Virus record (IMG/VR): IMGVR_UViG_3300021431_000077
Location: 39,062 to 103,061 of that record
Length of the DNA stretch: 64,000 nt
From: a virus
Taxonomy: Duplodnaviria; Heunggongvirae; Uroviricota; Caudoviricetes
Strand: one strand, 5' to 3'
The notes under the pieces were generated by a model, which saw only the letters and a program-made list of their open reading frames with translations, had not been told where the DNA came from and did no database searches. The position numbers and the translations under genes were made by a program. Shown here piece by piece: positions 10,946-24,475 of the stretch (position 1 is the stretch's first letter; each line of letters starts with the position of its first letter).

Positions 10946-11617
10946 ATGAGAACAATCAGAGAACATGTGTTTGAAACGAATTCCAGTTCGTGCCATAGCC
11001 TTACTGTTTCCGACAAGCAGTTGCCATCGGATTTGAAATTTCCGAAGACCCTTCTGATGGCGGGGACCAATTGGTACGATGCCAATTCTGATTTGGTTAA
11101 TCCAGAGGAAAAGGCTGACTATGTGGCGGTATGCCTTGCCGAGTACCTTGAATGGGAACTCGACCTCCGTACGGTGAAGTTTTATCGGGAGTTTGTTCCT
11201 TCCAAAAAATGGGGAGCGTTTGAACGTGCGGTAGACGGGCACTCTTGGTATACATGCAAGGTTGACGGTGTGGATGTCCCTGCAATGTATAGGGCGACCG
11301 ATTCGTTGCGACCGCCAAGGAAGGTGGTTGAAACAGTAACCGAGCATTTTGAAACCATCAAGAAGAATATCGAAACCACGTTTGCCAAGCACGGCGTTCA
11401 AGTGAAATGGTTTGACAAGGATAATCGTGGAATTGATTTTGATTTTGTTAACGGTGGCGTAATGGTCAAGGGAAGTATCGACGACCGTTCCTCGCCCAGA
11501 AATTGCTATCAAGAAACAAAGGCGATTATCGAAATGCTTAACGAGGACGAACCCGAACGCCTGTTCAACTTTATTTTCAACCCTGAATCAATTGTTCACT
11601 GTGATTCAGACTCGTAA
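10946..11617 (+). CDS. member 1 of paralogous family with N-terminal motif MRTIREHVFETNSSSCHS
   Basis: conserved 19-aa N-terminus shared with four other ORFs; body unrelated. Confidence 0.6.
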   Translation: MRTIREHVFETNSSSCHSLTVSDKQLPSDLKFPKTLLMAGTNWYDANSDLVNPEEKADYVAVCLAEYLEWELDLRTVKFYREFVPSKKWGAFERAVDGHSWYTCKVDGVDVPAMYRATDSLRPPRKVVETVTEHFETIKKNIETTFAKHGVQVKWFDKDNRGIDFDFVNGGVMVKGSIDDRSSPRNCYQETKAIIEMLNEDEPERLFNFIFNPESIVHCDSDS

Positions 11618-11627
11618 GGAGACCAAG

Positions 11628-12062
11628 ATGAAAACGATAAGACAATCAGTCTTTGAAACCAACAGTTCTAGCTGCCATGCGTTCAGCATCACTACTGAAC
11701 AAAAGTTTGACCCGAAGAGATATCCTCGCATCCTGGTATCTGGCTGCGGTGAATATGGGTGGTATGGCCCAGATGTGGAAACACCTGACGACCACCTCGA
11801 CTATGCTCTCGTGGCGGGCAAGTATATCTTCCACGAAGGCCTCCGTGAAAAGCTCCCTGCTATTCAGGAATACTTCGAAGAGCATGGCGTTATCGTCGAT
11901 TTCGACTTCAAGGATGAACCGTCTGGTTACATCGACCACCAGAGCGCTCCTAGCGTAGACGAAGATAGCCGTCGCATTGGCAACATGCTTGACGACCCAG
12001 AGGAACTGTTCACCTTTGTGTTCAGCGGCTCTGTAATCTCCATGGGAAACGACAACGATTAG
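11628..12062 (+). CDS. member 2 of MKTIRxxVFETNSSSxHA family
   Basis: start moved to MKTIRQSVFETNSSSCHAF with RBS taaggagacc. Confidence 0.6.
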   Translation: MKTIRQSVFETNSSSCHAFSITTEQKFDPKRYPRILVSGCGEYGWYGPDVETPDDHLDYALVAGKYIFHEGLREKLPAIQEYFEEHGVIVDFDFKDEPSGYIDHQSAPSVDEDSRRIGNMLDDPEELFTFVFSGSVISMGNDND

Positions 12063-12071
12063 GGTAACTCT

Positions 12072-12785
12072 ATGAGAACCATCAGAATGAATGTTTTTGA
12101 GACGAACTCGTCGTCCGAGCATGCGTTTACCTACCCGAAGGGAACGGAACCGACAATGCGTGACAAGTCGGAGTTCCCGCTTCCTGACGAAAACGGGCTG
12201 CTGGAAATCGAACTGGATACGTTCTGGCAGTCGGGCAACCCGAAGTGCTACACTAACGATGTCAAGCGGATTATCCAGTATCTTGCCGCACAGTCGGTAT
12301 ATTCCGTTCTTACCGAATGGAGAATTGACGGAGACAAGGGAGTTGTCTACAAGGTGCGGAAGGATATCAGGGAAAAGAACCATAAGGATTTCCTTGAACT
12401 GCTCAATGAAGTGTATCGGGAGTTCGGTCTTCCCGAGATAAAGGACTACCGTTGCTATACATTGACAGTGGATGGCGACAAGGTTGTCATCGACGGGGAT
12501 GAACCGCAGGATTACAGGAACTGCGAGTTCGACCCTGCCGACATGGACCGTGACGAATACGATGCCATGGTCGCTAGGTTCCATGAGAATAGTGACTATC
12601 CTGACTGCCCTAAGCTGGCCCATTACATTGGAATATCTGGTAATTGCCTTACTGGAGATTCCTTCATGGAAGCTATGCAGTATTTCGGTCCTGAGGACTG
12701 GCGAGATGACTTGTACGATACGAAGTACGAGATGCCGCTTGACCTTCTCAGGAGACACATAACCCTAACCTTCTGGCACAGCTAA
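12072..12785 (+). CDS. member 3 of MKTIRxxVFETNSSSxHA family
   Basis: MRTIRMNVFETNSSSEHAF. Confidence 0.6.
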   Translation: MRTIRMNVFETNSSSEHAFTYPKGTEPTMRDKSEFPLPDENGLLEIELDTFWQSGNPKCYTNDVKRIIQYLAAQSVYSVLTEWRIDGDKGVVYKVRKDIREKNHKDFLELLNEVYREFGLPEIKDYRCYTLTVDGDKVVIDGDEPQDYRNCEFDPADMDRDEYDAMVARFHENSDYPDCPKLAHYIGISGNCLTGDSFMEAMQYFGPEDWRDDLYDTKYEMPLDLLRRHITLTFWHS

Positions 12786-12794
12786 GAGGAGATA

Positions 12795-22306: not shown

Positions 22307-22324
22307 TTGGAAAAAGAGGTTTAT

Positions 22325-22684
22325 ATGGCAAAAGAAGTAAAAAGACTTACCGAAGAACTCGAAAAGCTGATTGAGCTTCGTAAGGGTATTGCAGACGAAA
22401 TGGAACAGTTCAACAAGAAAATGGAAGGTGTTCTTGGCGGTGATACCCGTTCGATGTATTTCGGACCTAGACAGTTGTTTGAAGATTATCTAATCAAGTG
22501 GCTTATGCGAAACCTGAATGAAACCAAGTGTGGTGCAGAATGGTTCCTGTATGAGGCTTTGAACCTAATTTCTAAAGGCGGCTCGACTTTTGTTGTAGCC
22601 AATGGTAAGAAATACACTCTTCACAATGTCACTGAATATGTAAGTATGTGTGTAAACACTAATGTAAAAGGGAAGAAGAAATGA
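22325..22684 (+). CDS. hypothetical protein (119 aa)
   Basis: ORF track trimmed to MAKEVK after promoter; RBS aaaaagagg. Confidence 0.5.
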   Translation: MAKEVKRLTEELEKLIELRKGIADEMEQFNKKMEGVLGGDTRSMYFGPRQLFEDYLIKWLMRNLNETKCGAEWFLYEALNLISKGGSTFVVANGKKYTLHNVTEYVSMCVNTNVKGKKK

Positions 22685-23259
22685 GTCGAACAGTGGAAGA
22701 AAATAAGGCTCTGTTGGAGAAGTACCCTATACTTCGCCAGAGGAATGTCTACACGGGCGAGCCTATTGACAACAACGACGAGTACACCTTTCTCGATGCA
22801 ATGCCTCAGGGATGGGCGAAAGCGTTCGGAATCCCGATGTTCGAGGATATCCAGAACGAGGTGAATACTTGGTCGAAGGAAGAGCAGGAACACTTCTTCT
22901 TTACCGACATCAAGGAAAAGTTTGGAGAACTCCGTGTGTACACCTCGCACATGACGGACAATCTGTTTAAAATACTCGAAGCGTACTGTGCAATCTCCCG
23001 CAATGTTTGCATCGTATGTGGAAAGCTAGATGTGCCGATGGTGAACCGTGGATGGATTAGCCCGTACTGCCGAGACTGCGCTTTGCATGCCGACATCGAA
23101 TGCCTTGACGACTACGATGATGCTGTCAAGGATGAACGCAAGGAAATCGTGGAGAACCTTTTGTTCAGCACGTACACCGACGGCAAGTGCTGCCCCCATG
23201 CAATCGACATTTCATCCTTTGTAAAGAAAGTGAGAGAATACAATGCAAATCGTGCTTGA
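22681..23259 (+). CDS. hypothetical Cys-rich (zinc-binding?) protein
   Basis: ORF track; CIVCGK...CRDC...CCPH. Confidence 0.45.
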   Translation: MSRTVEENKALLEKYPILRQRNVYTGEPIDNNDEYTFLDAMPQGWAKAFGIPMFEDIQNEVNTWSKEEQEHFFFTDIKEKFGELRVYTSHMTDNLFKILEAYCAISRNVCIVCGKLDVPMVNRGWISPYCRDCALHADIECLDDYDDAVKDERKEIVENLLFSTYTDGKCCPHAIDISSFVKKVREYNANRA

Positions 23260-23728
23260 TATTGAAAACACAGTCATAAACAACCTGAACTCGTGCGACA
23301 TCTTGCAGGACAACTGCGACAGGATTAGCAGGTTCATCAAGAATAACAAGCCCCGTTTCGTGCATCTGTTCACTTGGGGTTGGAAGGAACCTGATGACAT
23401 CCTCCACTCTGTTGTGGATTGTATCTATGACAGGTTGGGTGTTGATAAAGAACAGCGTGGCATTGTGTACACGAAGAGCGATTCGGTCGCCTATGCAATC
23501 GACCGTGGCTGGTTGAAACAAGAGGACAGGGAAGAAGTCCTCCACCCAGGCATGATGGCCGCATACGGCCTCGGCAAGATTCATCTTGTCACGGAACAGT
23601 TTGCCTCGAACGACCTTAGCAAATACATGGGTGAAGACTATGTTATCATCGACGACTTGGTAACCGATGAGGAACACATGTCCCTCCCGTATCACAACAT
23701 ACTGTTGATGAACCCAGAAAGAATGTAA
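23243..23728 (+). CDS. HAD-superfamily-like phosphatase (tentative)
   Basis: N-terminal IVLDIENTV (motif I-like) and YVIIDDLVTDEE (motif IV-like). Confidence 0.3.
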   Translation: MQIVLDIENTVINNLNSCDILQDNCDRISRFIKNNKPRFVHLFTWGWKEPDDILHSVVDCIYDRLGVDKEQRGIVYTKSDSVAYAIDRGWLKQEDREEVLHPGMMAAYGLGKIHLVTEQFASNDLSKYMGEDYVIIDDLVTDEEHMSLPYHNILLMNPERM

Positions 23729-23746
23729 ACAAAACAGGAGATACAA

Positions 23747-24475
23747 ATGAAAACAATCAGAAACTCTGTGTTCGAAACGAATTCGTCTTCGATGCACGCA
23801 ATCGTTATCCCGAGGGGTAGCGTATTCAACAAGGAACCCGTCAAGGTCTGTATGGACGGTGACATGGATTTTAGCGAGAGAACGCTTATCGAAAGGAAGC
23901 TGCCTGACGAAAAGGCTAGCTACTGCTTCCTAATTATCATGAAATACTGGTGCGACAAGTTGACTTGTGGCAAGTGGTCTGAAAAAAAGAGGGGCTACCT
24001 GAACATTAGCAAGAAGGATGTTAAACATAATAACGAGATTATTGCGGTATACAAAAAGTTCATTGCGTACATGAAAAAGAGCTTCAAGAAGCACTGGAAT
24101 ATCAGTCTTGCCATCAAGAATACCAAGGTAGAGTCCATGGAAAATGGTGCATACATTGGGCCGAAATATTGGGCTACGAATGGATGCTACGGGCATGAAT
24201 CCTTCCAGTCTATCATTATGAGCAACATGCTCAGAACGATTGACAAGATTACCGAGCCCAATGCAGACTTGTCTATTCTGAGCGTAGATGACAGCTGCAA
24301 TTCTTACTTGGACTTCTGCGACCTTGCGTCCTTTATCCTTGACCCGAATGCTGTCATTCTTCAGAACACCGACGAGTGCAGTGACAAGGAGTACAAGCAG
24401 ATGCAGCGCATGATTATTTCCTATGTGAGGAAAAATCAGGGTAAGTGCTTCGTTGACTGGCCTGCAGGTGGTTAA
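23747..24475 (+). CDS. member 5 of MKTIRxxVFETNSSSxHA family
   Basis: MKTIRNSVFETNSSSMHAI. Confidence 0.6.
   Translation: MKTIRNSVFETNSSSMHAIVIPRGSVFNKEPVKVCMDGDMDFSERTLIERKLPDEKASYCFLIIMKYWCDKLTCGKWSEKKRGYLNISKKDVKHNNEIIAVYKKFIAYMKKSFKKHWNISLAIKNTKVESMENGAYIGPKYWATNGCYGHESFQSIIMSNMLRTIDKITEPNADLSILSVDDSCNSYLDFCDLASFILDPNAVILQNTDECSDKEYKQMQRMIISYVRKNQGKCFVDWPAGG

Follow-up and report, generated by a model that had tools for sequence, protein, structure and literature searches.

Phage proteins with a common N-terminal TNSSSxH motif are linked, and often fused, to a radical-SAM enzyme

We analyzed a stretch of 64,000 nucleotides from a tailed-phage genome of the Caudoviricetes (IMG/VR record IMGVR_UViG_3300021431_000077, positions 39,062 to 103,061), hereafter named the window. 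Five of its open reading frames (ORFs), W1 to W5, start with the sequence M[KR]TIRxxVFETNSSSxH[AVS], and exactly five such ORFs are found in the window. They belong to a large family of proteins whose genes are accompanied, from phage to phage, by a gene for a radical S-adenosylmethionine (radical-SAM, rSAM) enzyme, which in the window directly precedes W1. We lean towards the view that the motif is the module by which the family proteins engage the rSAM enzyme, because it is unchanged where other features of the proteins have been replaced, because the rSAM gene is its only constant companion, and because the two are often encoded as one polypeptide. Through this tie to one dedicated enzyme, proteins so far listed as hypothetical become part of a defined two-component system.

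Results

Five ORFs of the window share an N-terminal motif

According to the ORF listing, W1 (10946-11617, 223 aa), W2 (11628-12062, 144 aa), W3 (12072-12785, 237 aa), W4 (14425-14907, 160 aa, acidic) and W5 (23747-24475, 242 aa) are all on the + strand. Their near-identical N-terminus had been pointed out in the initial annotation, and was recovered here by two further approaches. The back-translated ETNSSS pattern matched the window only at W1-W5 (0.32 matches were expected, and five were reached in 0 of 100 shuffles), and a profile of the motif gave W1-W5 scores of 64-69 bits, the runner-up ORF reaching 5.7 bits. Between paralogues, residues 1-20 are 65-80% identical, as against 13-23% for the rest of the proteins, hereafter named the bodies. 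The DNA coding for the motif is 58-72% identical between paralogues, and its third codon positions 30-65%. Selection thus acts on the motif at the protein level, as was first proposed from the choice of synonymous codons.

W1, W2 and W3 form a trio directly following a QueC-like gene (8995-9963) and the rSAM gene (9981-10943), an arrangement already noticed initially. W1 starts 2 nt past the rSAM stop codon. We placed this start at 10946, and not at the ATG at 10937, as it gives the spacing typical of the family, with Phe as residue 9; public gene calls agree. For W3, public calls in loci L001-L004 put the start five codons later (window 12072-12086), at an internal Met (232 aa, MNVFETNSSS...). 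This later start clips the first five residues of the motif, and the family-typical start is 12072. W5 is located 13 kb away from the rSAM gene; its orthologue directly adjoins rSAM in loci L005 and L011.

Bodies are of several types, some of them distantly related

The initial annotation also held that the five proteins diverge completely past the motif. This stands for W4 only: BLAST and profile comparisons indicate that W1 and W2 are clear homologues and that W3 and W5 are distant ones, W4 alone being without detectable body similarity to the others. W1 and W2 fall into a single BLAST cluster even with the motif trimmed. W2 is of a type that we call canonical type A, and carries its four motifs (FETNSSSxH, GEYGW, GYIDHQS and a C-terminal NDND). 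In an alignment of 50 homologues of W2, the N-terminal FETNSSSxH, GEYGW, GYIDHQS and the C-terminal DNDNH are all invariant. Full-length homologues of W2 number in the hundreds; they are 140-200 aa long, all metagenomic, and all without a Pfam domain. W1 is a decayed form of type A, its body motifs being degenerate (GTNWYD for GEYGW, SIDDRS for YIDHQS and CDSDS for DNDNH).

W5 is related to type A but has diverged from it, its motifs being altered to SSSMH, EKASY, GCYGH, IIQNTDE and a C-terminal VxWPxGG (alignment A9). W3 has a body type of its own, in a separate BLAST cluster (alignment A8); its motif reads SSSEH, and its C-terminus follows the pattern DLLxxxxTLxFxH[ST]. When full-length profiles were compared, 90-95 columns of the W5 and W3 types aligned to the W2 type at 98-99% probability. 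The signal drops once the motif is removed: hhalign of the W5 type against type A gives 99% with the motif included and 26% with the body alone. For the W3 type, whose kinship with type A is seen at the profile level only and needs the motif, body-only profiles match the W2 type with less than 1% probability. For W4, neither BLAST clustering nor body-only profiles detected similarity to the bodies of the other four. It loosely resembles a widespread small type, named type B, through the motif followed by ...EYxxWxxGEL... and a C-terminal VAFGxYG. Type B proteins are small and acidic (motif, then TMCTxxEYxxWKxGEL ... VAFGxYGYD), and their genes usually directly adjoin rSAM.

Canonical type A (with W2, and W1 as a decayed member), type B, the W3 type and the W5 type are the body types recognized in the homologous loci that we fetched. 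Hidden Markov models built on bodies only matched 225 ORFs in these loci, and the motif was present in all 225, with Trp for Phe as the single variant. Inside the loop TNSSSxH of the motif, position 16 (the x) is the sole variable residue, and in W1-W5 and loci L005-L018 it follows the body type: Glu in most W3-type proteins, Met in 6/6 of the W5 type, Thr in the type B consensus, and Cys or Ala in the W2 type.

The family is large and has apparently gone undescribed

A profile of the first 30 residues was compared, without a word index, to 1.84 billion cluster representatives, and 4,932 proteins were found at E<=0.001, each standing for a cluster at 50% identity. Almost all matches of the motif-only profile begin at residue 1, and lengths range from 30 to 395 aa among the 150 listed. 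Among 121 matches that were scanned, R5, F9, E10, T11, N12, S13, S14 and H17 are invariant, the median net charge is -13 to -15, and bodies split among many BLAST clusters. No real Pfam domain was found in these 121 proteins, the one match being at chance level. Carriers include Lak megaphages of Prevotella, Microcystis phage Ma-LMM01, Salmonella phage Arash, and many phages of the gut and rumen.

Searches of Pfam, NCBIfam and PADLOC with W1-W5 returned nothing at E<=1, save one chance-level NCBIfam match to W4, and the motif therefore does not map to a known Pfam domain. In PHROGs, the only matches were weak ones to the N-terminal part of phrog_28997, whose function is unknown. Sequence searches of the PDB with single proteins and with W2-, W3- and W5-type profiles gave matches at chance level only, no PDB fold match was found for the family, and megablast of the region against GenBank phages gave no match. 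In the literature, nothing relevant was found on the family, the motif, the rSAM clade, anti-defence functions of phage rSAM enzymes, or the rSAM genes of Ma-LMM01 and huge phages; gp128-130 are not named in the transcriptome paper on Ma-LMM01. Genes of the system are publicly annotated as "hypothetical protein", "Fe-S oxidoreductase" (the Ma-LMM01 rSAM), "methyltransferase" (the Arash fusion described below) and "organic radical activating enzyme". The description of W1-W5 as a diversifying family unlike anything recognized is thus upheld: the family is large, and has no Pfam entry, no solved structure and no mention in the literature that we searched.

Some members come from genome collections. 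The nearest relative of W2 there (90% identity) lies on a 101-kb contig of a sheep reticulum "Bacteroidaceae" metagenome-assembled genome (locus L104, JAFXNA010000009.1), and others, from gut or rumen samples, are binned with Methanobrevibacter, Methanomassiliicoccaceae, bacteria of the candidate phyla radiation and Clostridia. These are probably phage contigs binned with their hosts, in which case they would hint at the host range. In two proteins, P0241 (288 aa) and P0243 (395 aa), the N-terminal motif occurs twice, as if neighbouring paralogues had been joined into a single ORF; the first copy in one of the two seems to end in a frameshifted tail.

A radical-SAM gene is the constant companion of the family

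The rSAM gene of the window (9981-10943, + strand) encodes a protein matching Pfam PF04055, in which the CxxxCxxC motif (C51/C55/C58) is followed by H-E. In 73 orthologues, an N-terminal beta-hairpin (YxNGNxxV...DGTKIR) is conserved, and the only conserved cysteines are the three cluster Cys, from which we conclude that the enzyme has no SPASM or twitch domain. Both traits hold for the fusions described below, the hairpin standing between their two domains. No RRE (precursor peptide recognition element)/PqqD-like or auxiliary-cluster feature was found, Pfam giving only PF04055 and PF13353. The enzyme stays under the curated cut-off of each rSAM family in NCBIfam. Scores against named NCBIfam families (QueE, viperin, MoaA, NrdG, PqqE, MftC) were 15-47 bits, for curated cut-offs of 131-850, and the NCBIfam rSAM and maturase models cover only the rSAM core, i.e. 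the cluster-binding region. QueE was ruled out on this basis, its score being below the family cut-off. The best sub-threshold sequence matches include MftC, WgkB, ScmE/F, StsB and PqqE, and the structurally closest enzymes are SuiB and SkfB. The automatic JGI name is "organic radical activating enzyme"; matches to NrdG2 are weak.

A first lead to the association came from the neighbourhoods of distant homologues: in loci L005 and L007, an orthologue of the window rSAM lies among or beside family genes. When IMG/VR loci were fetched through the family, 71 of 80 had an rSAM homologue (30-96% identity) no further than 10 kb away. Reciprocally, all of the 11 IMG/VR loci fetched through rSAM have family genes within 10 kb. 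In an independent collection, the GTDB species genomes, rSAM was found within 6 kb in 53 of 76 loci, and the loci lacking it are mostly short contigs of 2-8 kb. Family gene and rSAM always share a strand, and in 74 of 88 loci they are separated by less than 300 bp. Each fetched locus has 1-9 motif-bearing genes, coding for 90-270 aa each. We then clustered all neighbour genes within 6 kb: only the family (200 proteins, 89 loci) and rSAM (88 loci) were present throughout, and no third conserved pathway gene came out of this clustering. The rSAM is therefore the obligate, and the only constant, genomic companion of the family. Other candidate partners were discarded. The QueC-like gene accompanies the family in only 10 of 98 loci, every one of which is closely related to the window, and ClpX, the TPM-domain gene and LemA are lineage-specific, being found almost only in such relatives.

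The two proteins are often fused

A tblastn search of GenBank phages with the rSAM protein identified three groups, Lak megaphages, Ma-LMM01 and its relatives, and Arash. In Ma-LMM01 the two genes are split, gp130 (MLSIQVRQGVFETNSSSTHS...) being two genes upstream of the rSAM gene gp128. In Arash, gp146c codes for a single polypeptide of 476 aa, with a canonical family domain (GFATNSSSSHS, GYGW, GYIDHES, GGNDN) followed by rSAM. A search with the Arash protein gave 726 proteins at E<=1e-5. Among these, each of the best 120 clusters has a length of 435-570 aa and a coverage of at least 92%, and was for this reason counted as a fusion, which makes at least 120 fused protein clusters, a lower bound. 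Some are on contigs binned with Methylobacterium, Thermoanaerobaculia and Promethearchaeota. In 116 aligned fusions, the motifs A-[T]-N-S-S-S-x-H-S, [G-W], [D]-H-x-S and G-G-[N]-D-[N] are invariant, or nearly so for the bracketed residues. Fusion loci contain no further motif-bearing genes.

The two architectures differ at two sites. In split systems, position 10 of the motif is Glu (121/121) and the third cluster Cys of rSAM begins a C-[HY]-E sequence (58/62). In fused ones, position 10 is Ala in all 112 proteins in which the motif was located, TNSSSxHS being invariant just downstream, and the rSAM sequence is C-Y-Q (114/116). The corresponding sites of the window are E10 of W1-W5 and E60 of rSAM (around 10158-10160), two residues past the third cluster Cys. 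This concerted switch gives a hint that the motif sits near the cluster-binding loop of rSAM; it may reflect a contact or a common cation site that only separate proteins require.

Predicted structures

An AlphaFold model of one fusion, P0140, computed with the 116-sequence alignment, has a pLDDT (predicted local distance difference test) of 92.3 and a pTM (predicted template modelling score) of 0.89, the latter indicating a fixed arrangement of the two domains. Residues 1-10 have a pLDDT of 84, with a strand predicted at 2-7. Only residues 12-21, TNSSSTHSVI, fall below 50, and these are the invariant loop. When W2 was modelled alone, residues 1-3 and 6-8 were below 50. As modelled, the motif consists of a beta-strand (MKTIRxxVFE), a loop (TNSSSxH) and a second strand, which open a small acidic alpha/beta domain. 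Of the two possibilities raised in the initial annotation, a targeting peptide or a conserved catalytic or binding N-terminal strand, the second fits this picture better.

Discussion

A possible mode of action

If the motif is the module that engages rSAM, its two parts may have distinct roles. The N-terminal strand (residues 1-9) would dock onto the beta-sheet of the rSAM N-terminal hairpin, a role that we assign to it because it is ordered only in the model containing rSAM. The mobile Ser-rich loop would enter the rSAM active site and undergo radical chemistry there, which may be a post-translational modification or an activation. Presentation of the loop to the active site is suggested by its extreme invariance, by its being unplaced in an otherwise confident model, and by the maturase-like character of the rSAM. 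The presence of one enzyme and many motif-bearing paralogues also fits: a single rSAM would serve all five proteins of the window, as one maturase serves many substrates sharing a recognition sequence. That the Ser-rich loop is itself the substrate is a more tentative proposal, which we see as possible rather than probable. Such a modification would be a new protein-directed rSAM reaction, on a motif without Gly or Cys. As for the benefit to the phage, the rSAM may modify, or be recruited through, a Ser-rich loop on diversifying acidic effectors, each directed against a different host target such as a defence system; this phage weapon is speculative, and rather unlikely in our opinion.

Several points weigh against engagement and modification of the loop. 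The chemistry is wholly inferred. A fused enzyme would meet its substrate at a 1:1 ratio, which is more readily expected of a subunit, or of activation in cis, than of a catalytic maturase. Neither conserved auxiliary-cluster Cys nor a recognizable RRE is present in the rSAM, and the closest maturases have both. Protein-directed rSAM enzymes usually target Gly or Cys, and the loop contains neither. The Glu/Ala and Glu/Gln switch could stem from one event in evolution, and sequence searches seeded with the motif inflate its apparent invariance. Lastly, the two structural models are from different proteins, with alignments of different depths.

Alternative explanations

The main rival explanation is that the family domain is a subunit of the rSAM enzyme, binding a cofactor or the substrate, and not a substrate itself. 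Strand and loop would then contribute to a composite active site, and interchangeable paralogues would vary its specificity or its targets. Fusion to the enzyme is the usual fate of a subunit, the fixed domain arrangement suggested by the pTM of 0.89 would suit it, and the strongly acidic bodies are compatible with it. Moreover, a motif covering the first strand and loop at the extreme N-terminus is typical of alpha/beta domains that bind nucleotides or cofactors, and TNSSSxH, GW, DHxS and NDN are all invariant in fused and canonical forms, as residues of a ligand site at strand ends would be. A single ligand site is, however, hard to square with the fact that motifs II-IV are lost or replaced in most paralogues, the N-terminal motif remaining unchanged, and the loop is left unplaced by AlphaFold even beside the rSAM domain. 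We hold this explanation to be somewhat unlikely. If paralogues do act as adaptors, they would represent a new viral way of aiming radical chemistry at different targets. The unequal decay of the motifs bears also on the idea of an independent, fast-evolving enzyme (for instance a Ser/His/Asp or metal-dependent hydrolase), acting before or after rSAM without any contact through the motif, which would simply be its best-kept active-site loop. The conserved polar residues (E/T/N/S/S/S/H, D-H-x-S, N-D-N) do look catalytic, W1, W2, W3 and W5 appear to be divergent homologues of a single domain, and consecutive enzymes of a pathway are also often found in operons and fusions. But in non-canonical paralogues the N-terminal motif should then decay alongside the others, which it does not, no hydrolase or other known fold or family was detected, and a third conserved pathway gene is missing. 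An independent enzyme is to us quite improbable.

Two further proposals do not involve rSAM. The initial annotation considered an analogy with the internal proteins of T4. On this reading, MKTIRxxVFE would be a capsid-targeting propeptide, removed after Glu10 by the prohead protease, the proteins being delivered into the head for injection. The likeness is real, as ten residues ending in V-F-E resemble the (L/I)-x-E sites of T4 gp21, and since in both cases a short common N-terminal sequence, with a Glu at position 10, is borne by diverse proteins encoded in plastic regions of large phage genomes, as in the internal-protein loci of T4-type phages. Several findings speak against this reading. 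The Glu is dispensable, being Ala in every fused homologue, and the invariant stretch runs for seven residues past the proposed cleavage site. The constant genomic partner is rSAM and not a head gene, and the motif also heads a 460-aa enzyme on contigs binned with bacterial and archaeal genomes. In addition, Arash Gp146, the fused form, is absent from a permissive virion proteome of 116 proteins, in which Gp143 and Gp149 are listed (PMC10585845). Capsid targeting is therefore very improbable. The other proposal, an N-terminal degron timing removal of the proteins by the phage ClpX, draws on the position of the clpX gene (20944-22191) between W4 and W5, and on the ability of ClpX to recognize some N-terminal motifs. 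Yet only 11 of 98 loci have a ClpX homologue close to the family, with a single exception all from near relatives of the window, and a degron leaves the fusion to rSAM unexplained; of all explanations considered, it seems to us the least credible. Some resemblances were followed and dropped for want of fold or family support: PIN (ETN for DTN), Toprim (E...DxD), SGNH (GGNDN for block III), flavodoxin (including an electron donor with a T/S-x-T-G-x-T loop), a B12-binding domain, and self-cleavage of the pyruvoyl or intein type at Asn-Ser. For PIN, Toprim and SGNH, fold and order of motifs did not match.

Comparison with known systems

The closest known systems are rSAM maturases acting on leader-bearing substrates, such as SuiB/SuiA, SkfB/SkfA, PqqE-PqqD/PqqA and MftC/MftA, to which prochlorosins may be added for the logic of one enzyme and many precursors. 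Here also, a CxxxCxxC rSAM gene is adjacent, in an operon with 1-9 genes that share an N-terminal recognition sequence and differ elsewhere, and as for PqqD and PqqE, the partner is sometimes fused and sometimes separate. In contrast to the maturase substrates, the partners are folded proteins of 90-270 aa and not short peptides, and their conserved part includes the presumed reactive loop, instead of a leader followed by a variable core. The enzyme itself differs from maturases by its lack of SPASM/twitch Cys and of an RRE; the system is phage-borne and has no known product. The anaerobic sulfatase-maturing enzymes anSME and AtsB, with their sulfatases, differ by two auxiliary clusters in anSME, a C/S-x-P-x-R motif where TNSSSxH is found here, and sulfatase bodies that are all clearly homologous and of known fold.

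Among glycyl-radical enzymes and their activases, such as PflB/PflA, NrdD/NrdG and GrcA, the target of a small rSAM is a conserved and mobile loop of its protein partner, as we propose here. Unlike in these pairs, the family has no RVxG[FWY] glycine motif and no ten-stranded barrel, and its motif is N-terminal instead of C-terminal; with no invariant Gly in it either, a glycyl-radical enzyme and activase pair was rejected. If the paralogues are adaptors, a functional analogy may be drawn with F-box and SOCS-box proteins, in which a shared docking motif recruits one catalytic machine and variable domains choose the targets. There is no kinship in sequence or structure, and the catalytic machine would here be a radical enzyme. 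In sum, the general logic, in which an rSAM has a protein partner or substrate of its own, was known before. New here are the motif, the partner's fold, the many bodies into which it has expanded, and the way it is distributed among phages.

Other genes of the window

The QueC-like PP-loop protein encoded directly upstream of rSAM has a Lys/Glu-rich N-terminal extension of about 90 aa. Its gene is outside the conserved module, and might provide a lineage-specific step. Between W3 and W4 are genes for a TPM-domain protein with a Gly-rich C-terminal tail (12795-13544) and for a LemA-family protein (13609-14205), which matches a PHROG annotated as virion structural protein.

A phage-borne CRISPR-Cas cassette (15421-20901) follows W4. 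It is composed of a Cas3 HD-helicase gene (15421-17709), a Cas7fv-like gene (17809-18807), two further ORFs (18810-19769 and 19773-20327), and a CRISPR array (20327-20901) of 10 repeats with a period of 61 nt, the repeat being about GTTTCCCGTGTGTGCGGGAATTGAAA. Since cas genes were called in the near-identical locus L002, and not in L001, L003 and L004, the cassette was recently inserted or deleted.

W5 is surrounded by genes of the host-takeover type (region 20944-26462), starting with clpX on the - strand. A gene for a PnuC-like nicotinamide riboside transporter (24453-25229) is close to W5, followed by a gene for a NadR-like protein (25230-26375) and a tRNA-Leu(TAA); in relatives, RtcB comes next. 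A second tRNA, Arg(CCG), is found at 52694-52769. Upstream of W5, a 192-aa ORF (22681-23259; ...IKEKFGELRVY..., with a Cys-rich C-terminal motif) has no family match. In 23 of 98 loci, which come from diverse phages, a homologue lies no further than 10 kb from the family, so that this neighbour is recurrent and not universal.

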